Below, piece after piece: positions 3,651 to 42,395 of a stretch of DNA of 64,000 nt. This DNA is from Promethearchaeota archaeon. Lineage in GTDB: Archaea > Asgardarchaeota > Lokiarchaeia > Sigyniarchaeales > SOKP01. The stretch is from contig JAEOTZ010000042.1 of assembly GCA_016839585.1 (NCBI GenBank), positions 1-64,000 on the forward strand, read 5' to 3'. Both the position numbers and the translations under genes were made by a program. The notes beneath the pieces are model-generated. The model had not been told where the DNA came from, searched no databases, and saw only the letters and a list, made by a program, of their open reading frames with translations. Positions within the stretch are counted from its first letter, which is position 1. Each line of letters begins with the position of its first letter.

Positions 3651-5324
3651 TTGAAATCTTTTGATTTTGATTTTGAAGTTCAAGAGATCTTTACTAAAAA
3701 ATTCTCTAATATCAAATCTCTTAACTGGAAAAGTTGGCTTGAAATAGGTTCTAAGGAAGAATATGAAGAGCTTGCACTGAAACTTTCTGGATTATTTTCG
3801 ATTGAAAATGTTTTAGAAAGAATTAAAGAGGAAAAAACGGATTCCAGAAGTTTTTCAATCGATCTAAATTCTTTTTTAGTTACATGGCAGGATAAAGATC
3901 CTCCAATTTTTTGCCATACTTCTGGAACAACAGATAATAAATTATCCAATTTAAAATGGTTTCATATGTCTAGAGATATTATTGAAAGGCAATGGGCTCC
4001 AGGAATGCAAGCTATTTTTGAATCAAGTGGTTTGGATACTAAGTCATCAGCAATTATTTTTATACCATCTAGATTGGAATTTGATGGAATTAGGAGAAGT
4101 GAAGATACTACCCATATTTCATTATATTCTTCAGAATTTTCTCAGAGAATTATGCTTTCTGTTGTTAAACCTTATTCATATACATTCTATGAATATAGAA
4201 ATTCAAAGAATTTAGAAATTATATCTAAGATTTTACTTATGGAAAATATTGCAGTTATTTCTGCTCCTGCTATAACAATTCTGGGTTGGGCTGATATAAA
4301 TAGATTACAAACTGGCTTAAAGAAATCTCTCAATTCAATAGATTCGGTTAATAATTCAATCTTAGAGAGTTTTTTAAATAAAATTAAAAAAAAAGGCTTG
4401 AGTTCTGTAGCAAGAGAAATTCAAGAAAAATTGTCAGAAAAATTATCTAAGGCTACATTGATTTTTAGTATTAGTTCTCTTTCTAAATCAGACTGGGAAT
4501 TAATTCGTACATTGATGAAATGGGAGACAGGTAAAGAAAAATTCACAAATCTCTATGTATCCTCTGAGATCGGACCTTTTGCGGCAAGTATCAATAAAGG
4601 AAATTTTGAAATTTCACGTTTAAATAGAATGTATGTTTTTCCTTTAACATTGCCTGTTATTGAGAGTAAAGGTAAGAAGGAATTAATATCTAGAAGTAAA
4701 AATAAACTTGGTAAGCTTCTTGTATCTAGATTGAATAATTCAAGAGTTCTAATCAATATTGATACAGGAGATATTATCTCTGTTAAGAACAAAGAAGCAA
4801 TTCCTCAAATTGATGGGAAAATTTTAAGATCACAATTCCAATTAAAATATCCTATTAAGATATCAAATCAAATTAAAATTAACTCAAACTATACTATCTA
4901 CGCCGGAGATTACTTTTCGTTAACTGATTTTGAAATAGTTGAACCGCGTGTTCTATTAAATCGTTTGAAAGAACAATGTAATTTTACAAGTGATTCCTTA
5001 ATATTAATTAAATTTATTGAAAAAGAGAAAATTAAGTGGAAACTAATCATACCTTCAAGTAAAAATACAATTTGCTCAGATGAACGCAGTGTGAGAAAAT
5101 TTATCTTAAAATATCCAGAATTTGATGAAATACATCAAGCAATTAAAGACCAAATTATCCATTTTCAGTTAATCAATGGTAATCCCGTAGATTTTCTAGC
5201 CCACCGCGATGAGATGTTAATGAGAGTTAGAAATGGCAAAATTCCAAAGGGAATTCTTAAAAAATGGTCTTTATATGTTATTAAACCTGAACAACCCCAA
5301 TTAATTAAAAAAGAAAAAATTTGA
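3651..5324 (+). CDS. GH3/LuxE/PaaK-like acyl-adenylate-forming (ANL superfamily) enzyme
   Basis: ANL motifs HTSGTT (P-loop), LYVSSEIG and DTGD. Confidence 0.65.
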   Translation: MKSFDFDFEVQEIFTKKFSNIKSLNWKSWLEIGSKEEYEELALKLSGLFSIENVLERIKEEKTDSRSFSIDLNSFLVTWQDKDPPIFCHTSGTTDNKLSNLKWFHMSRDIIERQWAPGMQAIFESSGLDTKSSAIIFIPSRLEFDGIRRSEDTTHISLYSSEFSQRIMLSVVKPYSYTFYEYRNSKNLEIISKILLMENIAVISAPAITILGWADINRLQTGLKKSLNSIDSVNNSILESFLNKIKKKGLSSVAREIQEKLSEKLSKATLIFSISSLSKSDWELIRTLMKWETGKEKFTNLYVSSEIGPFAASINKGNFEISRLNRMYVFPLTLPVIESKGKKELISRSKNKLGKLLVSRLNNSRVLINIDTGDIISVKNKEAIPQIDGKILRSQFQLKYPIKISNQIKINSNYTIYAGDYFSLTDFEIVEPRVLLNRLKEQCNFTSDSLILIKFIEKEKIKWKLIIPSSKNTICSDERSVRKFILKYPEFDEIHQAIKDQIIHFQLINGNPVDFLAHRDEMLMRVRNGKIPKGILKKWSLYVIKPEQPQLIKKEKI

Positions 5325-5334
5325 TATTTTAAAT

Positions 5335-5736
5335 TTATTTCCAAATTACTAAAATACTTCCCGCAATTAAAAATGCAATAAGATAAACGATATATTCTAA
5401 AAGAAATAGTTTCATACCTCTATCGTTAAAATTCGACTGATTTATACCTATAGTTGCGACAAATCCAATCCAAAGCAATAAACTGAGTAATAAAGCGGGA
5501 CCAATCTCTGATAATCCTATTAAGATCATAACAACATCAATTACAAGTACTGTAATAAAACTTAATGGAATCATAATTATTGTTTCTTTTATAATTTTAG
5601 ATTTGGGCTCACCTTCTTTACCAACTAATTTAAGCCAGAGATTTCCGAATGCAGAAGGAAAATACCAAAAAAAATGTATGGCAAAATAAATCAGAGCGAC
5701 AATAGTAACTGCTAACCAATTAATTTCAATAGCCAT
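5335..5736 (-). CDS. DUF1761-like 4-TM membrane protein, copy 1
   Basis: INWLAV...WYFPSAFGNLWLKL...LLWIGFVAT pattern; ATG at 5736. Confidence 0.75.
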   Translation of the reverse strand: MAIEINWLAVTIVALIYFAIHFFWYFPSAFGNLWLKLVGKEGEPKSKIIKETIIMIPLSFITVLVIDVVMILIGLSEIGPALLLSLLLWIGFVATIGINQSNFNDRGMKLFLLEYIVYLIAFLIAGSILVIWK

Positions 5737-23561: not shown

Positions 23562-24449
23562 CTACTTTATATTATATTTTTCTAGCAATGCTGTTAATCT
23601 AGATCTATGGAACTTTAATCCTAGATCATCTGGATTCTCTCCAAACGCTAAAGCCATTAGTTCAGTTAGATACAGTATTGGAATATTAAAACTTTTGTTC
23701 GACTGAGTCGCTGCTTTCTTTTGATTTGAATCCATTTGTTGAAAGCAAGCTGGACAAATAACGACAAATGCTTCAGCCCCAGCTTCTAGAGCACTAGTGA
23801 ATTTATTGGCTAAGACCTGCATCGATGGTTCTTCTTCTGTGTTTCCTACTCCCGCTCCACAACAAAGCATTTCCTCTGCATATTCTATTGGGGTTGCGCC
23901 CGTGGCAGCGACTAGCTCTCTTAATTTTACTGGTTCCATTGGATCATCAGTTTGCATAATTTCAGAGGGTCTATTATAGTGACAGCCTGTATGGCATGCT
24001 ATTTTTAATCCTGATAAATCACGAACGATATTTTCCTTGATTTTTTCATCTCCTAACTCGTGTAAAACTTCGACAAAATGTTTAACATGGATAGTTCCTT
24101 TAAATTCTCGACCAACCGTTTTTAAAATTTTATTTATCTTTTCTTTTTCATGATCATTATGAGATAATTCATGGTTTACCGCTTTTAGTGTTTGAAAGCA
24201 ACCATTGCATAAGGATACTATATTTTTTCCTTCTTTTTCGGCAATAGTAAGATTACGTGCACCCATTGCTAACCAACTAGTATGATCTACAGCATTAAAC
24301 CCAACTGGGTCTGGACAACAAGCAAACGGAGCATCAGATGTTTTTATTCCTAATTTATCAAATACTTTTCTTGCTGAAGCTTCAATAAACGGAATTCTAT
24401 TTCCAATTGTACACCCTTGGAACATTTTATATTCTTCTGCTTTTGCCAT
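23562..24449 (-). CDS. hdrB: Heterodisulfide reductase subunit B
   Basis: Two CCG domains: FQGC, CCP, CNGC, HTGCH, CCG, CPAC. Confidence 0.88.
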   Translation of the reverse strand: MAKAEEYKMFQGCTIGNRIPFIEASARKVFDKLGIKTSDAPFACCPDPVGFNAVDHTSWLAMGARNLTIAEKEGKNIVSLCNGCFQTLKAVNHELSHNDHEKEKINKILKTVGREFKGTIHVKHFVEVLHELGDEKIKENIVRDLSGLKIACHTGCHYNRPSEIMQTDDPMEPVKLRELVAATGATPIEYAEEMLCCGAGVGNTEEEPSMQVLANKFTSALEAGAEAFVVICPACFQQMDSNQKKAATQSNKSFNIPILYLTELMALAFGENPDDLGLKFHRSRLTALLEKYNIK

Positions 24450-25110: not shown

Positions 25111-25926
25111 TTAGATAATAATTCTAGAAGGGTGAGTATAAATATTCATTCTTGCTCCCCTTACAAATCCTATCAATGTAATTCCGTAAGCAAAAGCTAA
25201 CCTAATACCAGATTCTATGGCAGCAGATAGGGATGCCACAATCGGAATCTTTGCCCGTATTGCTTTCAATACCGAATCTCCTGTTAATCTGCCTGTTGAT
25301 ACTAATATTAGGTTTTGAAAATTATGCTCTTTTAACAATAAATCCCCTATGACTTTATCAATTGCGTTGTGTCTACCAATATCTTCTTTAACACTTATTA
25401 AATTGCCTTCCAAATCAAATATAGCTGCACCATGACATCCTCCAGTTTCTCGATATAATTTTGTTTTTGTATGCATTTCTTTAATAGCAGAATAGATTAT
25501 ATCTGATTTAATTTTAAGAGTTGATTTTCCCTTAAGAGATTCTTTTACTTTATACTTTTCTAGACTGTTCTTTATAACATTTCTCCATGGAGATGAAATT
25601 CCACAGGTTGTATCAACAACTCTACTAACAGGGTTTATCTCAAGATTTTTTACTCTGAAGTCTATGGAATCATCTAATTCAATAAACACTTTCTTTTCTA
25701 ACTCTTTTACATTAACAGATTTTACATCTTTAATTGAGTTGATAATTCCAATAGAGAATAAAAATCCAATACTCAATTCTTTAAGATCTTTTGGCAAACA
25801 AATAATATTAACTAACGCTTCGGAGTTTACAATTATATCTATAGGACTCTCAATAAGAATTAAATCATCTTCCTTGCTTCTTTGATTTTTCTTTATCCGA
25901 GTAATATTTACCTTTCGCTGAAACAA
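25111..25926 (-). CDS. fdhD: Formate dehydrogenase accessory sulfurtransferase
   Basis: TTCG, TGGCHGAA, EDIGRHNAIDK, TGR, LIGFVRG. Confidence 0.92.
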   Translation of the reverse strand: MFQRKVNITRIKKNQRSKEDDLILIESPIDIIVNSEALVNIICLPKDLKELSIGFLFSIGIINSIKDVKSVNVKELEKKVFIELDDSIDFRVKNLEINPVSRVVDTTCGISSPWRNVIKNSLEKYKVKESLKGKSTLKIKSDIIYSAIKEMHTKTKLYRETGGCHGAAIFDLEGNLISVKEDIGRHNAIDKVIGDLLLKEHNFQNLILVSTGRLTGDSVLKAIRAKIPIVASLSAAIESGIRLAFAYGITLIGFVRGARMNIYTHPSRIII

Positions 25927-26657: not shown

Positions 26658-27467
26658 TTATGCGGCAATATATAGTTTACCAGTTGATTCTTTACTTACA
26701 GAATGATCTCCACTATACTCAATAAACTTGCCTGTGATTTTTTCTCCATTCGGTAAATCAATTTCTTTAACTTCACCTATTCTTTTAAAAGAAGGGAGTT
26801 TTCTTGAAACTTTACCCTTAATAACAATGATGCCTCGTGCTTGATCAGCGCCTGCACACCTATCGCAATCTCCTTCTACAACAATAGTACCACCATGATT
26901 ATGAGTCCCAAGAAATGGTCCTGCACTTCCACAATACAACATTGGCCATCTATTAGCTGGTTTTGAACTTCTTGCCCAAAGCATGGATTCATTACCGACT
27001 TTACCTTTTACCTTTATTACTCCATTTTTCATACCCTGCCAGTTACCTCTATACGCTGCCCCGACATAATGACCAGCATCTCCAATTATCTCTAATTCAC
27101 CCCCTTGCAGCATGGCTCCTGCCCAATCATCAGCATTTCCATTCACTAAAATTTTTCCGCCTGACATATTATTACCCACATGCATTCCAACATTACCATT
27201 TATAATTATTTCACCACCACTCATTTGCTCTCCAATTCTTTTCACGTTTGATAGATCTCCATCAATAACTATTTTAGTATTATTCACATTACCAGATTTT
27301 CCAGAAACACTAAAATAATCTCCTATTACAGTATTTTCGTTTCCATGGTACAAAGGTAACTTTTTAATTGCATCAAGAGTTTTTCCAGCAAAATTATCTG
27401 GAGTTATACTTTCGGCTTCTAAAGGGAATTTTGGTAGTTTTTTTAATTTCAACTTTATCTCAGTCAT
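26658..27467 (-). CDS. fwdC: Formylmethanofuran dehydrogenase subunit C
   Basis: PLEAESITPD and GXGXG repeats (IGEQMSGGEIIINGNVG). Confidence 0.92.
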   Translation of the reverse strand: MTEIKLKLKKLPKFPLEAESITPDNFAGKTLDAIKKLPLYHGNENTVIGDYFSVSGKSGNVNNTKIVIDGDLSNVKRIGEQMSGGEIIINGNVGMHVGNNMSGGKILVNGNADDWAGAMLQGGELEIIGDAGHYVGAAYRGNWQGMKNGVIKVKGKVGNESMLWARSSKPANRWPMLYCGSAGPFLGTHNHGGTIVVEGDCDRCAGADQARGIIVIKGKVSRKLPSFKRIGEVKEIDLPNGEKITGKFIEYSGDHSVSKESTGKLYIAA

Positions 27468-27470
27468 TAC

Positions 27471-28799
27471 TTACTCTCCTTTTTTTTCCTTTATTTTCTC
27501 AATTAATTTTTCTAATATTTCTTTATCAGATAAACACTTACCAGGAGCATCTTTCACTTTTCTTAATCTTATAGGAACACTATCCATGCGGTAAGCTGTT
27601 CCTTCACATTCAATCCCTGCAATTGCTGCTGGGAAATTAATATCAGCATTCGCAGAAGTTGGTGTTTCATGCGGTTCAATAGAAATTAAAGGATGCTTAA
27701 ATAAATTTTTCACGGAAGCTGCTGGAAAATTACTGGCAGGATCAGATGCAACTATCAAGGAGGCATCAATTTCATCTCTCATTAAAAGATCTACTGATGA
27801 AAATTCTCCCGGATTATATCGGGGATATCCTTTTGAGAAATCAATTGAATAAGCATAACCCGTATTCCAAGCAAAAACAATATTAGCTCCTGTTACGTTA
27901 TAATGACCCCGCATAGGCATTAGTAGAAATTTAGTATGATCATTTAATTCTCTAACTAAGGAAATGGCCGCATCAATGTTCCTATGGTGAGCTAAAGATT
28001 GAGTTAACCCCATACCAAAAAATATAACTCCAAAGTTACAAGTTTTCAAAATATTGACTAATTCTTTGATCTTTTCCATTGGAACGCCTGAGATTTCCTT
28101 TTCATCTAATTCTACTCCTCTTACCATTGCTCTAATAGCATTTAATAATTCATAATCTTCGCTAGGTTTTATTTGAATAAATAGATCTGCTATTTGGGCA
28201 GTATGAGTATTCCTTGGATCAACAACAACAATAAATCTGTCATTTCTACCATCTTTTCTAAAATACCCCCTTACAAACTCGCTATATCTCCCAAGATGCC
28301 TTGGATGAGCATGGACGGGATTGGATCCCCAAAATATAACAAGATCTGCCCTATTTTTAAAATCTCCTAATGTTGCCATAGGTGCTCCCACATCTTGGAT
28401 AGCCAATAAACTAGGACCATGACAGACTGAAGCGGTGTTATCTAAAATTCCACCTAACAACTCTGCTAACTCAACACCTTTACTTTGAGCTTCACATTCT
28501 GTGCTAGAAAAACCATAAAGTAAAGGTCTTTTAGCACTAATTAATATTTCTGCGGCTTTATCAAAAGCTTCATCCCAAGATACTTCTTTAAATGAATCAT
28601 TTTCTTTGATCCGAGGTTTGGTATATCTATGTCCACTTGGATTTGATGAAAAGAATTTTTTTGTGCCAATTTGACAACCATTCCTTATTTCTACAATCGT
28701 TTCTTCTTTAATATCTACATCAACTTCAAGATCATCACAAAGTGTGCCACAAAAAGGGCAAATAACATCAGAGATTGTTCTTAATTTCCTTTCCACCAT
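27471..28799 (-). CDS. fwdB: Formylmethanofuran dehydrogenase subunit B (Cys form)
   Basis: CPFCGTLCDD, DNTASVCHGP, WGSNPVHAHPRH, MRGHYNV, GTAYRMD. Confidence 0.95.
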   Translation of the reverse strand: MVERKLRTISDVICPFCGTLCDDLEVDVDIKEETIVEIRNGCQIGTKKFFSSNPSGHRYTKPRIKENDSFKEVSWDEAFDKAAEILISAKRPLLYGFSSTECEAQSKGVELAELLGGILDNTASVCHGPSLLAIQDVGAPMATLGDFKNRADLVIFWGSNPVHAHPRHLGRYSEFVRGYFRKDGRNDRFIVVVDPRNTHTAQIADLFIQIKPSEDYELLNAIRAMVRGVELDEKEISGVPMEKIKELVNILKTCNFGVIFFGMGLTQSLAHHRNIDAAISLVRELNDHTKFLLMPMRGHYNVTGANIVFAWNTGYAYSIDFSKGYPRYNPGEFSSVDLLMRDEIDASLIVASDPASNFPAASVKNLFKHPLISIEPHETPTSANADINFPAAIAGIECEGTAYRMDSVPIRLRKVKDAPGKCLSDKEILEKLIEKIKEKKGE

Positions 28800-28801
28800 T
28801 A

Positions 28802-29197
28802 TTATGCCACCTTTAACGTTTTTATTAAATCAAGAGCATCTAAAACATTACCATTTTTAACTACTTCTACTTTTGCTTTCATCCCTTTATAAGTCGGTGT
28901 ACCACAGGATTGAGTATCGGGATTTACAACTTGGTTAGCCCAAGGTCCCAGAGGTATAAATATTATACCCTTATGGGGACCTTCTTCAGAAATAGTAGAG
29001 TAAACCATTACTTCTCCATAATCAGTAATAACTTTAACAGGAGTTCCTACAAGGCAGTCTAACTTCTTGAAATCTTCTTTATCAAATGTACATATGGCAG
29101 CAGCTCTCACATTTTCTTTTGTTGTTTTACCACCTTCGAGTGCAACTCCCTGATTAATTGTTCTTCCAGTCAGTAAAATCAAGTTGTTTAAACTCAT
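28802..29197 (-). CDS. fwdD: Formylmethanofuran dehydrogenase subunit D
   Basis: LLTGRTINQG, FIPLGPWAN, GTPTYKG; likely ATG at 29197 overlapping the upstream TGA. Confidence 0.9.
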   Translation of the reverse strand: MSLNNLILLTGRTINQGVALEGGKTTKENVRAAAICTFDKEDFKKLDCLVGTPVKVITDYGEVMVYSTISEEGPHKGIIFIPLGPWANQVVNPDTQSCGTPTYKGMKAKVEVVKNGNVLDALDLIKTLKVA

Positions 29198-29919
29198 TCT
29201 TCTTTCTCCTCTTTTTCTCTCTCTCTTAAAGTCTTTAATCTTTCTAATAAAGGTTCCCAAAACATTTCACTAAATTTTCCAGATGTTTTAACATCTGTAA
29301 TTTCTAACTTGACTGCACCTGTTGGACATCCATTATCACAAGCTCCACAAAATACGCATTTTTCCTCATCCACAACTACATTTGGGACTGTTTCCCAGCC
29401 TTTATCAGACTTTTTTGGGACTGTAATTGCACCAGATGGACATACTTCGTAGCATGTTTGACATCCACCAGGGCACTCCTCATCAACAATACTTATTTTG
29501 CCGTCGGTATATTGTTTAACAACCCTCTTAATCGCGTTATAGTTCTCAATCTTTTTAGCTTCAAATTCCAGTCTGGGTACTACTTTTTCTTTTACAATTT
29601 GGATGTCTTCTAACTCAATTACTTCACCATCTTTTTTTAAAGTTAGAGCACTAAAAGGGCACATGTACACACAAGTTCCACAAAAAACACATTTTTTTGG
29701 GTCATATACCTCTGGTATAATATCTTCTAAAGTTGGGAATCGTCGGGAAGTTCCTACAGGTCCTCTTGAAATTGCCTCTTTAGGACAAACACGAGCACAA
29801 GTTCCGCAACCAACACATTTAGTTCTATCTAAAATTAATTCTAAACTTTCAGTTAAAAATTGAACTTTTACATGTTCTATTTCTTTACTAATTGTTCTTG
29901 ATATTTTTGGAAATGACAT
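29194..29919 (-). CDS. Polyferredoxin, FwdF-like (4 clusters)
   Basis: Four CxxCxxCxxxCP-type motifs; likely ATG at 29919. Confidence 0.8.
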   Translation of the reverse strand: MSFPKISRTISKEIEHVKVQFLTESLELILDRTKCVGCGTCARVCPKEAISRGPVGTSRRFPTLEDIIPEVYDPKKCVFCGTCVYMCPFSALTLKKDGEVIELEDIQIVKEKVVPRLEFEAKKIENYNAIKRVVKQYTDGKISIVDEECPGGCQTCYEVCPSGAITVPKKSDKGWETVPNVVVDEEKCVFCGACDNGCPTGAVKLEITDVKTSGKFSEMFWEPLLERLKTLREREKEEKEE

Positions 29920-29929
29920 ATTTTTTACC

Positions 29930-30187
29930 TCATTTACTTTCAACTAAATGTAATTCAATAGCAGAGACTGGGCAAAATTTAATACAAACACCACATCCAT
30001 CACAGTTCACATCTCTACCCTCAACATATATATCATAAGCCATTCCATTTTTGACTAAGACTACTGCATTTTCTTTAGTTAAATAACCCTTTTGTTTTAA
30101 TTGTTGAAAATTCAAGGGGCAACTTACAACGCAGTCATTACAGCCAATACATGTATTTTTATTAATTTTCAGTCTGTAAATTTGCAT
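29930..30187 (-). CDS. 2x[4Fe-4S] ferredoxin (FwdG/H-like)
   Basis: CIGCNDCVVSCP and CDGCGVCIKFCP. Confidence 0.8.
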   Translation of the reverse strand: MQIYRLKINKNTCIGCNDCVVSCPLNFQQLKQKGYLTKENAVVLVKNGMAYDIYVEGRDVNCDGCGVCIKFCPVSAIELHLVESK

Positions 30188-31157: not shown

Positions 31158-32816
31158 ATGAAAAATGATATATTTACTTTTCTTGTTGGCGGAAAAGCAG
31201 GAGAAGGCGTAAAGAAAGCTGGTTCAGTAGCGGCACATATTTTTTCAAGTATGGGACGTCATCTTTTTCAAATGGATGACTATATGAGCTTAATTAGAGG
31301 AGGTCATAATTTCTCAGTTGTTAGTACTTCCCGAAGATGGATCAGTAGTCATTATATGAAGGCAGATTTAATTGTAAATTTTGATAAAAGAAGCTGCGAA
31401 ACTCATATTAACGAAGTTGCTGAGGGAGGGATTGTTATTTTTAATTCAGATGAGCAAGAGGATGTAGAAGGGATTGGAGTACCATTAAGCTCGATAGCTA
31501 AAAAATATCCACTTAAAAGCTTAATGTATGGAGTGGGTGCTGTCGCAGTCTTATCTTCTTTTATAGGTTTCAAGAAAGAAGAAATGAATCACATCATAAA
31601 ATCTGAGTATCCAAGAGGTATTAAAGATAATATCTCTTTTGCTAGTGAGATATATGATATTGTAAATCCTGAATGTGGAAGTAAGTTTCCTTTAGAAAGA
31701 GGTGACTATAAGAGACCAATCATAACAGGCAACGAAGCAATAAGTTTGGGTGCGATTGCAGGTGGATTAGACACTTATTATGGATATCCAATGACTCCAG
31801 CCTCATCAATTTTGCATTTTTTAGCTGAACAAGCAGAAAATTTTGGTTTAGCAGTTGTTCATGCTGAAAGTGAAATTGCTGTAATAAATATGGCTATTGG
31901 TTCTGCATTTACAGGTGCAAGATCTATGGTTGGAACAAGTGGAGGGGGCTTTTCTCTTATGACAGAAGGTTTTTCTTTGGCAGGTATGACAGAAACTCCC
32001 ATATTAGTGATATTTTCTCAAAGACCTGGACCTGCCACTGGTGTGCCTACTTATACAGAGCAGGCAGATTTAAATTTTGCTTTATCAGCTAGTCATGGAG
32101 ATTTCCTGCGAATTGTGGCATCTCCCGGGACCATAGAAGAAGCATATTACTTAACAGCAGAGATGCTGGACATTGTATGGAAATTTCAAACACCAGGAAT
32201 TTTACTTACTGAAAAACATTTATCAGAATGTAGTATAACTGTGGATCTTGAGATTAATAATGTTAAATGGGCTGAACCTAAGATGCATAAAGGTGGAGAA
32301 TATAAGAGATATCTTGATACTGAGGATGGAGTCTCTCCCATGTTATTCCCTCCATCTAAAGAAGTTATAAAGTGGAATAGTTATGAACACGATGAATTTG
32401 GAATCACAACTGAAAAAGCTAATCTGATTGAAAAAATGCATGATAAAAGAAAGAAAAAAATTAAAGTAATTCAAGATTATTTGAAAAACTTAAATACTGT
32501 TAATATTTTTGGAAATGGAGAACCAATAATATTCACTTATGGATCTACTACGATGAGTGTATTAGAAGCACTTAAATGCAGGAATATTGAAGCAACTGTA
32601 GTTCAACCAATATTTTTAAAACCCCTTCCTCTTTGGAATCTTAAAAATTATGTGGATAAAGAAAATATAGTTGTAGAAATGAGTTCAACGGGTCAATTTG
32701 CGACTTTACTTAAAGAAAAAGTGGGCATCTCTCCTAAAGCAGAGTTAAGACAATATAATGGAAGACCTTTTGATCCTATTGACCTATCAAATAAAATAAT
32801 GGAGGTGTTAAAATAA
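31158..32816 (+). CDS. korA: 2-oxoacid:ferredoxin oxidoreductase alpha (gamma-alpha fusion)
   Basis: GGKAGEG, IRGGHN, YPMTP, ESEIA, TSGGGF, QRPGPATG. Confidence 0.9.
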   Translation: MKNDIFTFLVGGKAGEGVKKAGSVAAHIFSSMGRHLFQMDDYMSLIRGGHNFSVVSTSRRWISSHYMKADLIVNFDKRSCETHINEVAEGGIVIFNSDEQEDVEGIGVPLSSIAKKYPLKSLMYGVGAVAVLSSFIGFKKEEMNHIIKSEYPRGIKDNISFASEIYDIVNPECGSKFPLERGDYKRPIITGNEAISLGAIAGGLDTYYGYPMTPASSILHFLAEQAENFGLAVVHAESEIAVINMAIGSAFTGARSMVGTSGGGFSLMTEGFSLAGMTETPILVIFSQRPGPATGVPTYTEQADLNFALSASHGDFLRIVASPGTIEEAYYLTAEMLDIVWKFQTPGILLTEKHLSECSITVDLEINNVKWAEPKMHKGGEYKRYLDTEDGVSPMLFPPSKEVIKWNSYEHDEFGITTEKANLIEKMHDKRKKKIKVIQDYLKNLNTVNIFGNGEPIIFTYGSTTMSVLEALKCRNIEATVVQPIFLKPLPLWNLKNYVDKENIVVEMSSTGQFATLLKEKVGISPKAELRQYNGRPFDPIDLSNKIMEVLK

Positions 32817-32817
32817 A

Positions 32818-33657
32818 GTGGAAAATTTAAAAAGTAATGCTGAAATTACTTGGTGTCCAGGATGTGGTAATTTTGGGATCTTTACTGCCATTCGGAATGC
32901 AGTTCCAATATTAGAAGAGAAAGGAATTTCAAGAGAAAGAATTATAATGACTGCTGGGATTGGATGTCATGCCAAGATATTTGATTATTTAAACTTAAGT
33001 GGTTTTTATGGTTTACATGGAAGGAATACCTCAAATTCTGAAGGAATTAAAATTGCAAATCCAGATCTAAAAATAATTAATTTTTCTGGAGATGCTAATG
33101 GATTAGCAGAAGGATTGGCACATACCATGTTCGCAGCAAAAAGAAATCAAGATATAACATTTATTTTACATAATAATAGCGTGTATGCTCTTACTACAGG
33201 CCAATTCTCTCCATTAGCAGAAAAGGGATGGAAGGGACCTTCTACACCCAGAGGTAGCTACGAGGAACCGTTTAATCCGATGTCGTTGATGATCGAGGCT
33301 GGTGCTACTTTTGTTGCTAGAGGTTTTGCAGGAGATACAAAGCATCTCACCGATCTCATAGTACAAGGAGTAGAACACGAAGGCTTTGCTTTCATTGAAA
33401 TCTTACAACCTGCCGTTCCGTACCATAAGTGGGAAGAATATAGAGATCGTGTTCAATATCTTGAAAAAGAACCAGAAACATATTGTGAAAGTATTAAGGC
33501 TGCCAAGGAAAAACATAAGTTTACAATTGGAGTATTCTATAGAACTACAAGACCAGTTTATTGTAAAGAGTTATATGGAGATTATAACCCAATTACAAAA
33601 AGCTTATCAAAAGAAGTAAGAATGGAAAGAATAAGAAAAATTCTTGAATCCAAATAA
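32818..33657 (+). CDS. korB: 2-oxoacid:ferredoxin oxidoreductase beta
   Basis: WCPGCG, GIGC, LHGR, SGD, NNSVYALTTGQ. Confidence 0.9.
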   Translation: MENLKSNAEITWCPGCGNFGIFTAIRNAVPILEEKGISRERIIMTAGIGCHAKIFDYLNLSGFYGLHGRNTSNSEGIKIANPDLKIINFSGDANGLAEGLAHTMFAAKRNQDITFILHNNSVYALTTGQFSPLAEKGWKGPSTPRGSYEEPFNPMSLMIEAGATFVARGFAGDTKHLTDLIVQGVEHEGFAFIEILQPAVPYHKWEEYRDRVQYLEKEPETYCESIKAAKEKHKFTIGVFYRTTRPVYCKELYGDYNPITKSLSKEVRMERIRKILESK

Positions 33658-39598: not shown

Positions 39599-40885
39599 AT
39601 GAAAGAATTAAGAAAAAAACTAAAAATCACAAGTAAAGCGTTAGATACAGTAAATAAATTTCTTGTTGATGAAAATAATATTCTAATCAATAATTTATTT
39701 GAAATAATCGAAAAATATGGTGGCGTTGATGAAATCAATAAGAAAGCTAAAGAAGCAAGTGAATTAGATAATCTACTAAGTAAACTAAAAAATAAGAAGC
39801 CTGATTATGCGCAGGATATAGAATGGTTAATTGAACAAAGAGATAATAACGCTTTTATTAGCATACCTGAATATAGAAAGAAAATCCTGGGAGAAAAATT
39901 TTCAGAAATGAGCTTTAATAAGGATTATGCTGTTACTTTAGAGCTTTCAGCTTGCCAGTACTTTCCATTTTTTATGGATATAGCAAGAGCCGCTATTGAA
40001 GATCAGAATTTAATGCCAGGTAGAATAATTCGTGTAAGAAAAATGAAGGAACAAGAAGTAGATGGGGATCTATTAGCAATGGCGACTGCTATGCAAATTA
40101 TAGGGGCAACCTATGTCGAAACACTTGATACCAAGGGAACTGCTCCTGGTCCTGATGGATTTCCTGTAAATGTCCATTTAGGAGGACCAGAAACTATAAC
40201 GGGTTATTTTGGTGGAGTGGGGCAACCTAATGATTTTGCTTTAAAGTGGGTTGATGAATATCTTTATTATTATACTAATTATGGTATCAAGCAAGTTCTA
40301 AATGTTAATCCAGGAACGGTTTTACTAGGATATTTTATTCATAAATTAGGGATTAATAACGAATTTAAAATATCAGTATATATGGGAAATGATAATCCAT
40401 ATTCTTGCCTGTGGACTCTTTTAACAGCTAAACTATTCGCCAGAGAAGACGGAACAAGTCCGTTGATTGGTTTTAATCTTGCTAACTCAGTAAATAATGA
40501 AACAATTGAACTCACTGCTCATATTAGAAAAGCATTTGATTTTGAAGATGTTGTCAGATTTGAACATCATGTGATTGAAACACAGAAAAGTATTGTACGC
40601 CAACCATATGATCGAAGAGAAGATTTATTGGAAGTTGCTATGAAAGTGAAAAATGTCAGTGCTAAACATGAAGGCGGTGATGTAGAAATAGATAAGAATA
40701 GAGAACATCCTTCAGATATTTTAGATTATTTTAGGGATAAGCAAGAGATTATTGATTCAGGTCATTGGGAATTTATGCGTAGAAATCACCTTGATAGATA
40801 TATTGCTATTAATACTACGGCTAAAGTATTAACTGAAAACGGTATTGATATTATTGCTGCCCAAAATCTTCATCAAGTTGATTAA
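39599..40885 (+). CDS. Hypothetical protein, probably co-transcribed with the aldolase-Fae fusion
   Basis: 428-aa ORF with enzyme-like segments (ETLDTKG, NVHLGGPETITGYFGG, EHH, KHEG); 22-bp gap to the next gene. Confidence 0.75.
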   Translation: MKELRKKLKITSKALDTVNKFLVDENNILINNLFEIIEKYGGVDEINKKAKEASELDNLLSKLKNKKPDYAQDIEWLIEQRDNNAFISIPEYRKKILGEKFSEMSFNKDYAVTLELSACQYFPFFMDIARAAIEDQNLMPGRIIRVRKMKEQEVDGDLLAMATAMQIIGATYVETLDTKGTAPGPDGFPVNVHLGGPETITGYFGGVGQPNDFALKWVDEYLYYYTNYGIKQVLNVNPGTVLLGYFIHKLGINNEFKISVYMGNDNPYSCLWTLLTAKLFAREDGTSPLIGFNLANSVNNETIELTAHIRKAFDFEDVVRFEHHVIETQKSIVRQPYDRREDLLEVAMKVKNVSAKHEGGDVEIDKNREHPSDILDYFRDKQEIIDSGHWEFMRRNHLDRYIAINTTAKVLTENGIDIIAAQNLHQVD

Positions 40886-40907
40886 ATAATAGAGGTTCGA
40901 AGAAAAG

Positions 40908-42395
40908 ATGAGTAAGTTTGACTTTAGACCCTCGGGAGTCATGCCAGCAATGGTAACACCATTTAATAAAGATGAATCGATAAACGAAGACCAATTAAGA
41001 AATTTAGTTAATCATCTTATTGAACAAGGGGTTACAGGATTAGTCCCTGTCGGTACTACCGGAGAATTTGTAAATATGACTTTTGAGGAACGTATAAAAG
41101 TAATTGAAATTGTAGTGGATGAAACAAATGGTAGAGTTCCGGTTATAGCAGGAACAGGAGAGACAGGAACTAAGTTAGTAATTGATGCTACTAAGGCCGC
41201 AACTGATATTGGTGCTGATGCAGTTTTAATAGTTACACCGTATTATTTAAAGCCAAAGGCAAAAGGGTTATATGATCATTACTTTACAATTACTGAAAAA
41301 ACAGACATCCCTATAGTACTATATAATATCCCTGCTTGTACGGGCGTAGAATTGCCTTGGACTGTTGTGGAAGATCTCGTAGATATCGAAAATATTGTTG
41401 CTATTAAAGATTCTAGTGGTGATTATAAATACTTTTCAGCATTATTGGAAAAAGTAAGTGATAAGATTTCAGTCCTTATTGGATGGGATGAAAATGTTCT
41501 AGGAGCTTTAGCTGGAGGTGCTGCTGGCTGTATCTTAGGTTCTGCAAATGTGTTCCCTAAAATTTGGCTCGAAATTTATAATCATGTAAAAAATAATCGT
41601 CTAGAAGAAGCTCAAGTACTTCAAAAGAAGGTCCAAAAAATAGCAAGACTTTTAATAAACTCAGGAGCATTAGGAGTTAAATCTTGTTTAAATATAATGA
41701 AAGTACCGGTTGGAAAAACTAGACAGCCCATTGTTATAGGAGACGCTCTTTCTTATGAAATAAAAGATGAATTAAGAGTTGAGCTTGAGAAATTAGGATT
41801 GATAGAAAAAATAGAAATCCAATTTGAATTAGGAGAAAAAACACTAACAAGTCGTTTTTATGCTGTTGGAATTACACCGAGGAAAATCATAAATTTCAAG
41901 TTAAAAGTCGGGGAATCTTTAGTAGGAAATCGCGTTGAACTTGCACATATTGATCTTTTAATTGGTGAAAAAGATGGACCTGTTGGACAAGCTTACGCTC
42001 AAGCTTTAACTAGTCCTGAAGAAGGACGTGAAGGACTTCAGGTCATACTTGAGCCTAATATGCAAGTAAAACCACCCACAATCATGATTCCTACAGTTCG
42101 TCCGGTCTCTCTACGTCACGCAAGTTTAACTTATGGGCCTGCTCAAGCAGCAATAGCTAAAGCAGTGATGCAATGTGTAGAAGATGGAATTCTTCCAAAA
42201 GAATTAGCTGATGACATTGTTTTAATTGTAAATGTTTTTGTTCATCCAAGTGCGAGTGCAAGAAAAAGAATCTTCATTAACAATTATAAGGCAACTCGTA
42301 ATGCGATTCGAAAAGCAATGGAAGGCTTACCAACTGTAGAAGATGGTATTGAAAATGCTGAAAGTGCCAGACATCCATTTAGAAACGATCCTTAA
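40908..42395 (+). CDS. DapA-family class I aldolase fused to formaldehyde-activating enzyme (Fae)
   Basis: N-terminal GTTGE, LYNIP, IKDS; C-terminal VGESLVG..AHIDLLIG.KDGPVG..KPPT..GPAQAAIAKAV..NVFVHP..NYKAT..HPF. Confidence 0.88.
   Translation: MSKFDFRPSGVMPAMVTPFNKDESINEDQLRNLVNHLIEQGVTGLVPVGTTGEFVNMTFEERIKVIEIVVDETNGRVPVIAGTGETGTKLVIDATKAATDIGADAVLIVTPYYLKPKAKGLYDHYFTITEKTDIPIVLYNIPACTGVELPWTVVEDLVDIENIVAIKDSSGDYKYFSALLEKVSDKISVLIGWDENVLGALAGGAAGCILGSANVFPKIWLEIYNHVKNNRLEEAQVLQKKVQKIARLLINSGALGVKSCLNIMKVPVGKTRQPIVIGDALSYEIKDELRVELEKLGLIEKIEIQFELGEKTLTSRFYAVGITPRKIINFKLKVGESLVGNRVELAHIDLLIGEKDGPVGQAYAQALTSPEEGREGLQVILEPNMQVKPPTIMIPTVRPVSLRHASLTYGPAQAAIAKAVMQCVEDGILPKELADDIVLIVNVFVHPSASARKRIFINNYKATRNAIRKAMEGLPTVEDGIENAESARHPFRNDP

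Follow-up and report, generated by a model that had tools for sequence, protein, structure and literature searches.

A DHDPS-family aldolase fused to a formaldehyde-activating enzyme in Lokiarchaeia: a candidate link between tetrahydromethanopterin-bound one-carbon units and the homoserine node

The 64,000-nucleotide stretch of DNA analysed here (hereafter the window), from contig JAEOTZ010000042.1 of a Promethearchaeota archaeon assigned to the Lokiarchaeia, contains at positions 40908-42395 of the plus strand a single uninterrupted open reading frame (ORF) of 495 amino acids, in which an aldolase of the DHDPS/NAL family is joined to a domain of formaldehyde-activating enzyme (Fae). Judged by its sequence, the protein is not the lysine enzyme DapA. 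The reading favoured here, for and against which confidence is evenly balanced, is that the fusion is a bifunctional enzyme which transfers a one-carbon unit, at the oxidation level of formaldehyde, between pyruvate and tetrahydromethanopterin (H4MPT), giving 4-hydroxy-2-oxobutanoate (HOB), and that it provides an alternative to the route through homoserine dehydrogenase (Hom).

Both halves of the fusion are complete, which confirms the aldolase joined to a full Fae domain that an earlier note on this DNA, made from the letters alone, had described. PF00701 (DHDPS/NAL) is matched over residues 8-293 (profile positions 2-286 of 289, 264 bits) and PF08714 (Fae) over residues 334-491 (profile positions 1-158 of 159, 187 bits), and the score of 186.6 on the NCBIfam model of the Fae domain (TIGR03126) lies above the cut-off of 118. 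The GTTGE, YNIP, IKDS and AHIDL motifs are all located (Table 1). In alignments, GTTGE at residues 49-53, Tyr139 and Lys167 of the aldolase part coincide with their counterparts in E. coli DapA, NanA and YagE, and are invariant in 26 fused sequences. Two further aldolase models are matched below their cut-offs, namely the NAL family (190 against 281) and the archaeal KDG aldolases (113 against 390). The Fae part aligns with the 169-residue Fae of M. extorquens (1Y5Y) gap-free over residues 5-166 of the latter, and from its sequence looks functional; Fae is a homopentamer (1Y5Y) with active sites at the subunit interfaces. The Fae-Hps model NF009833 is matched in its Fae part only (profile positions 2-161 of 392, 149.8 bits against a cut-off of 274), there being no Hps domain in the fusion. 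An AlphaFold2 (AF2) monomer model, with a predicted local distance difference test score (pLDDT) of 82 and a predicted template modelling score (pTM) of 0.71, consists of a confident barrel, where pLDDT is mostly above 90, a flexible linker, where it falls below 50 at residues 304-328, and a Fae fold, where it ranges from 70 to 90.

The occurrence of the fusion follows that of the H4MPT pathway. Mch is encoded in this genome (348 bits), and in a sample of 201 Asgard genomes, each 80% complete or better, where the fusion was counted at a best E value of 1e-80 or lower, 98 of the 101 carriers have Mch, the three exceptions being genomes of 81-90% completeness. Conversely, the fusion is found in none of the genomes of the Mch-less Asgard families (0/24 in f5, 0/12 in f21 and 0/7 in f14). 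Within the window, FwdC-, FwdB- and FwdD-like genes lie with genes for a polyferredoxin and FdhD at ~25.1-29.9 kb on the minus strand. The connection to the H4MPT pathway proposed in the earlier note, which had remarked on the nearby fwd genes, is thus upheld, both by the presence of those genes and by the co-occurrence with Mch. A separate, ordinary Fae-Hps gene of 431 amino acids is present on another contig (C55), its Fae domain being 41% identical to that of the fusion, and because of this gene the Fae domain of the fusion constitutes an extra copy in the genome.

A second pattern concerns the homoserine node. Hom (PF00742) has no match in this genome (3.45 Mb, 99.2% complete) even at E <= 1, while all 14 of 14 control genomes have one; aspartokinase and Asd are present. 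The fusion and Hom are anticorrelated in the Asgard sample (both in 16 genomes, the fusion only in 85, Hom only in 65 and neither in 35; odds ratio 0.10), in the window's own family of 46 genomes (9, 23, 11 and 3 in the same order; odds ratio 0.11), and in 121 Bathyarchaeia (7, 31, 69 and 14; odds ratio 0.05). The anticorrelation recurs at the level of the genus and in two phyla.

Stronger evidence for the homoserine node than this anticorrelation is provided by the gene immediately upstream of the fusion, and by the genes with which it is paired in different lineages. In ~70 of 80 related loci, a gap of only 16-43 bp separates this partner from the fusion that follows it. Fusion-bearing lineages that lack the 428-residue form of the partner have instead a 312-residue protein, also without a Pfam match, that directly adjoins the fusion; the two forms are related over 229 columns (77% probability, E 2e-5 by hhalign), and one or the other is present in every sampled fusion-bearing Asgard family. 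In the 121 Bathyarchaeia, 19 of 19 carriers of the 428-residue form also have the fusion. In Asgard families that lack both Mch and the fusion, the partner gene is nevertheless present (19/24 in f5 and 12/12 in f21), and in 22 genomes of such families it is found on the same contig as Hom and no more than 9 kb from it. Two loci from Mch-less Asgard families (L120:970-6340 and L121:2304-7759) have an operon in the order partner (a 427-residue triose-phosphate isomerase (TIM) barrel), class I aminotransferase, Hom and aldehyde:ferredoxin oxidoreductase (AOR), and in ~20 Thor-like genomes the partner, in divergent orientation, adjoins a threonine synthase that scores above its curated cut-offs. 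Hom and an aminotransferase lead from aspartate semialdehyde through homoserine to HOB. Since the partner is found with the fusion in some lineages and with Hom and an aminotransferase in others, and HOB is also what an aldolase acting on pyruvate and formaldehyde would form, the fusion is a likely alternative route to the HOB/homoserine node.

The partner itself is 68-97% identical across Loki genomes, and has no match in Pfam, NCBIfam or the sequences of the PDB; an exhaustive profile search recovered full-length members in no more than a few clusters at 50% identity. Its AF2 model (pLDDT 88.8, pTM 0.88) is a (beta/alpha)8 barrel. Foldseek against the PDB returned weak matches to barrels of class II aldolases and sugar epimerases (template modelling (TM) scores of 0.3-0.46), VIA-align wide returned a flat list of unrelated TIM barrels with Z scores of 10-12, and a feature search of the ESM Atlas gave weak, unrelated rows only. 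A shape search of the Atlas placed a 'peptidase U32' barrel on top (TM 0.55/0.74); the conserved Cys set is absent from the partner, and no conclusion as to a U32 role was drawn. The partner would thus represent a new enzyme family, one that matches no known family and yet is tied by its context to Hom, ThrC or the fusion, depending on the lineage. There are hints that the barrel family also occurs in high-GC bacteria. Four of its representatives (P0253, P0254, P0258 and P0295) come from high-GC contigs and have a frameshifted look, with Arg/Ala-rich stretches, and P0253 continues into a sequence that presumably resembles beta-keto-acid cleavage enzymes. Two variations on the locus can also be recorded. 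A small number of Loki genomes have two genes inserted between partner and fusion, one polysaccharide-deacetylase-like (269 amino acids) and one for a hexapeptide-repeat acyltransferase (183 amino acids) (L033:4550-5983; L027:337-888), and in one Thor-like locus (L123:1918-3411, minus strand, and 4205-5485, plus strand) the threonine synthase beside the partner bears a C-terminal winged-helix domain of the PadR type.

Table 1. Coordinates of the fusion gene, its domains and motifs, and its upstream partner in the window.
Feature	Position	Strand	Evidence
Partner gene, 428 aa, predicted TIM barrel with N-terminal helical domain; two-gene operon with the fusion	39599..40885	+	AF2, synteny
22-nt spacer between partner and fusion, contains GAGG	40886..40907	+	read from sequence
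Aldolase-Fae fusion gene, 495 aa	40908..42395	+	ORF, Pfam, NCBIfam
Class I (Schiff-base) pyruvate-aldolase barrel, DHDPS/NAL family, residues 8-293	40929..41786	+	PF00701
GTTGE, residues 49-53, pyruvate-carboxylate-binding motif	41052..41066	+	alignment
YNIPACTG, residues 139-146; catalytic Tyr139; Cys144 at 41337-41339	41322..41345	+	alignment
IKDSSG, residues 166-171; Schiff-base Lys167 at 41406-41408	41403..41420	+	alignment
Linker, residues 294-333; starts at end of conserved ELEKLG helix (292-297), flexible after	41787..41906	+	AF2 pLDDT, alignment
Complete Fae domain, residues 334-491	41907..42380	+	PF08714, TIGR03126, 1Y5Y alignment
AHIDL, residues 346-350; His347 (41946-41948) = His22 of M. 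extorquens Fae	41943..41957	+	1Y5Y alignment

Taken together, the two domains are suggestive of a reaction in two steps. The Fae domain would interconvert methylene-H4MPT and H4MPT plus formaldehyde, and the aldolase domain would hold pyruvate as a Schiff base or enamine on Lys167 and add it to the formaldehyde supplied, perhaps by channelling between the domains, to give HOB. The net reaction would be pyruvate + methylene-H4MPT + H2O <-> HOB + H4MPT, and would be reversible. The fusion is predicted to act as a two-gene module with the TIM-barrel protein encoded upstream, and to be an alternative to Hom plus a transaminase as a means of reaching the HOB/homoserine node. The synthetic direction is favoured because the genome has aspartokinase and Asd but no Hom; in this direction, a one-carbon unit and pyruvate would give HOB, to be passed to the partner enzyme and possibly on to homoserine or threonine. 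A wider proposal, put forward tentatively and judged rather less probable than the bifunctional enzyme itself, is that Lokiarchaeia, Thor-like Asgards and many Bathyarchaeia possess a natural route of one-carbon assimilation into the aspartate-family node, in which methylene-H4MPT of the Wood-Ljungdahl pathway and pyruvate would yield HOB and then homoserine and threonine, or another essential product, in place of Hom. In this proposal, the partner would be the enzyme of the next step, for instance the missing step of homoserine or HOB activation.

Among the alternatives, a reaction running in the opposite direction survives best, though it is on balance unlikely. Here, HOB derived from homoserine or another C4 source would be cleaved to pyruvate and formaldehyde, and Fae would trap the latter as methylene-H4MPT for oxidation or for the synthesis of acetyl-CoA. 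Such a role would resemble that of known Fae-Hps proteins, one of which this genome has, where Fae scavenges formaldehyde released by an aldolase-type cleavage, and the AOR in the operon of the H4MPT-less lineages could oxidise the aldehyde set free. Moreover, reactions of class I aldolases are expected to be reversible. However, the genome has no Hom to produce homoserine or HOB from aspartate semialdehyde, so that HOB would lack an evident source, and the anticorrelation with Hom is more readily accounted for by a fusion that takes over the supplying role of Hom. The identity of 85-95% across genera is also suggestive, albeit as a weak argument, of a core rather than a peripheral catabolic function. 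Thus, of the proposal made in the earlier note, the interconversion of HOB with pyruvate and formaldehyde is retained as the most economical reading, whereas the retro-aldol direction and the link to sugar-acid catabolism found no specific support, the Hom anticorrelation and the pairing of the partner pointing instead to the homoserine node. The evidence for that node is compatible with either direction, but favours the fusion as a substitute for Hom.

Several observations weigh against the fusion as a route from pyruvate to HOB in place of Hom. Both the acceptor aldehyde and the donor oxo acid are deduced from domain logic, and the fold matches of the partner are generic TIM barrels. The fusion and Hom are not strictly exclusive, as 16 Asgard and 7 Bathyarchaeia genomes have the two together, and the sampled genomes are related, such that Fisher p-values overstate the association. 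A catabolic pathway that oxidises an aldehyde would be equally consistent with the AOR of the alternative operon. In addition, were the product to feed threonine, the later steps would be hard to trace here: canonical ThrB was not found in this genome, and the only ThrC-like protein is a divergent one (472 amino acids, contig C60) that scores 145 bits against a cut-off of 167, and 322 against 421 on NF004170. Finally, a search for the ThrC family at E <= 1e-30 found no match in five relatives that carry the fusion and lack Hom, among them a genome of 100% completeness. The product may therefore be something other than threonine, or threonine may be one of several.

Some of these absences are shared more widely. 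Canonical ThrB (TIGR00191) is found in only 15 of the 201 Asgard genomes while genes of the ThrC family are found in 183, from which it follows that most of these archaea must use an unrecognised homoserine-activating step. As ThrB is rare across all sampled Asgards, its absence was set aside as a sign specific to the fusion. Likewise, the ThrC-like protein on contig C60 was rejected as a companion of the fusion, since it shows no co-distribution and occurs in fusion-less genomes too. In the window's family, canonical ThrC clusters with Hom.

It is less probable still that the enzyme acts on a different donor or aldehyde, for instance 2-oxobutanoate, hydroxypyruvate or 2-oxoisovalerate, the last of which would make it a PanB-like, H4MPT-dependent ketopantoate synthase. 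The specificity pocket is unlike those of DapA, NanA and YagE, its motifs being GWDE or GHDE and YNIPxC, and PanB provides a precedent for chemistry in which a methylene-pterin donates a hydroxymethyl group to a 2-oxo acid. Against this, pyruvate is the usual donor among members of the DHDPS/NAL family, and the gene context speaks for homoserine and threonine genes rather than for those of pantoate or branched-chain synthesis. The ketopantoate synthase was set aside, as a normal PanB is present in the genome (371 bits) and an analogue would not be needed.

The distribution of the fusion, and its duplication in many lineages, bear on whether the Fae domain takes part in one-carbon chemistry at all. 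Over 75 species genomes of the Promethearchaeota share the architecture at 72-95% identity, as do Bathyarchaeota at ~56%, and because of this recurrence the fusion is not attributable to chance. More distant fusions are present in bins labelled Baldr, Thor and Thermoplasmatota, in one labelled Hadarchaeum and in one labelled 'Chloroflexi'. Overall, the fusion has a broad distribution that takes in Lokiarchaeia, Thor-like Asgards, Bathyarchaeia and Thermoplasmatota. Many lineages have two aldolase-Fae paralogues in tandem (L091:6001-8938, L088:6582-9470, L086:6056-9470, L093:1692-5438 and L106:6750-9638). In alignments, neither the AHIDL His nor the C-terminal ARHPF segment survives in the A copy, and the B copy is degraded in the EPNxxVKP/YGPxQ region; these complementary losses suggest a hetero-oligomer with a composite Fae site. 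The single-copy fusion of the window retains every Fae motif. It could be argued that Fae, which forms pentamers and in the tandem paralogues has lost motifs from individual domains, is here a structural scaffold for oligomerisation with no one-carbon role. However, the hallmark motifs of the window protein are all intact and its alignment to 1Y5Y has no gaps, the losses in the A and B copies are complementary, as expected if a composite site is retained, and the fusion is confined to Mch-positive genomes; this explanation is accordingly very improbable.

Two other observations concern the loci of these relatives. In the Thor-like, Baldr-type and 'Chloroflexi'-labelled loci, the neighbouring genes (M20 peptidase, CutA, TAL/FSA, TIM, AOR and FGGY kinase) reveal no consistent further component. 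In one Bathyarchaeia genome (G312, contig C8; L129:3560-6196), Hom is directly followed by an aldolase-Fae gene that contains three stops (two TGA and one TAA), which may represent a decaying fusion beside Hom or a sequencing error.

Public records name the fusion DapA, because it and its relatives score 230-254 bits on TIGR00674, all above the cut-off of 206 (251 bits for the window protein). The genome contains three PF00701 genes, and one of these, on contig C88, encodes a canonical DapA of 304 amino acids with YNVPSRTG, which scores 342 bits on TIGR00674 and adjoins dapB and the end of lysA. In alignments with this protein and with E. coli DapA, the position of Arg138 of the E. coli enzyme, the residue to which the carboxylate of aspartate semialdehyde binds, is occupied in the fusion by Cys144, in agreement with the earlier note, which had taken the replacement of the Arg as a mark that the protein is no true DHDPS. 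The Arg is found in no fused sequence; the consensus of the fused family is YNIPQCTG, with GHDE or GWDE at the site of the GDD of DapA. A maximum-likelihood tree places E. coli DapA and the genome's own DapA together on a long branch (support 99/97), apart from all 27 fused aldolase domains. A search with the aldolase part alone, confined to proteins of a length other than that of the full-size fusion, still returned almost only Fae fusions or fragments of them among the closest relatives, to as little as ~45% identity, and no dap genes lie beside the fusion in any of the fusion loci examined. With a canonical, Arg138-bearing DapA beside dapB and lysA, the Arg lost from the whole of a separate fused clade and dap genes never adjoining the fusion, the possibility of a true DapA (4-hydroxy-tetrahydrodipicolinate synthase) to which a Fae domain has simply been attached can scarcely be entertained for the fusion, notwithstanding its TIGR00674 score and its name in public records.

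The third PF00701 gene (contig C62; L003:193-2271, minus strand) is itself a fusion of 692 amino acids, in which a weak DapA-like N-terminal barrel (80 bits) is joined to a C-terminal phosphotransferase of the APH type (PF01636), and in which the Schiff-base motif is apparently replaced (LNDS as opposed to IKDS). This protein was considered as an alternative homoserine kinase, and rejected as no homoserine-kinase family was matched. Elsewhere in the window, an HdrB-like gene with a CCG domain lies at 23562-24449, FdhD at 25111-25926 and the FwdC/B/D-like cluster with polyferredoxin at 26658-29943, followed by a gene for a 2-oxoacid:ferredoxin oxidoreductase at 31158-32816, which is adjoined by an ORF at 32818-33657.

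If the proposed reaction is correct, the fusion would be the first natural enzyme to condense a cofactor-bound formaldehyde unit with pyruvate, and the natural counterpart of the chemistry of the synthetic 'homoserine cycle'. Metabolic reconstructions would then change for Bathyarchaeia and for the Asgard archaea, which are related to eukaryotes; these genomes appear to lack Hom, and the gene stands in them under the name of a second DapA, a label that represents an annotation error in more than 100 species genomes. Full-text literature searches returned no paper on the fusion or on HOB chemistry tied to H4MPT, and nothing relevant on Hom in Asgards.

Among characterised systems, archaeal Fae-Hps (NF009833) provides the closest parallel in design, in that Fae is joined to a second enzyme whose reaction forms or cleaves a carbon-carbon bond to formaldehyde, thereby coupling free formaldehyde to H4MPT. 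The two differ in that the aldolase of the fusion is a class I Schiff-base enzyme of the DHDPS/NAL family whereas Hps has the OMP-decarboxylase fold, in the order of the domains, which is reversed, with Fae at the C-terminus of the fusion, in the predicted substrate, which is a C3 oxo acid and not ribulose 5-phosphate, and in a gene context of homoserine and threonine genes rather than pentose synthesis. DapA (TIGR00674), the best-scoring characterised subfamily, shares the barrel, the GTTGE motif, the Tyr of YNxP and the Schiff-base Lys, and the DHDPS of M. jannaschii (2YXG) is the top PDB sequence match of the fusion. The fusion differs from DapA in the replaced Arg138, in the change of GDD to GWDE or GHDE (similar to the GYDE of NanA), in forming a separate clade and in the fused Fae, and the canonical dapA is located elsewhere in the genome. 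NanA, YagE/YjhH and the KDG aldolases resemble the fusion in their aldol or retro-aldol chemistry with pyruvate and an aldehyde, and motifs of the YNIPA and GxDE types are held in common with NanA, but the profile scores of the fusion fall far under the cut-offs of these families, and the aldehyde predicted from the fused domain is formaldehyde.

A functional analogy, and no more than that, can be drawn with PanB, which transfers a hydroxymethyl group from a methylene-pterin cofactor to a 2-oxo acid; PanB is a metal-dependent enzyme of the ICL/PEP-mutase superfamily, unrelated in fold and mechanism, that acts on 2-oxoisovalerate and works directly with the methylene cofactor. The carbon chemistry itself, from pyruvate and formaldehyde to HOB, is known from engineered pathways only. 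PMC10293595 cites two such designs, by He et al. (the homoserine cycle) and by Wang et al. 2019 (a 2-keto-4-hydroxybutyrate route), in which HOB is formed in this way and can be converted to homoserine by transamination. Those engineered routes use promiscuous aldolases and free formaldehyde, whereas the fusion would be a natural, dedicated enzyme, with its one-carbon unit predicted to come from methylene-H4MPT.

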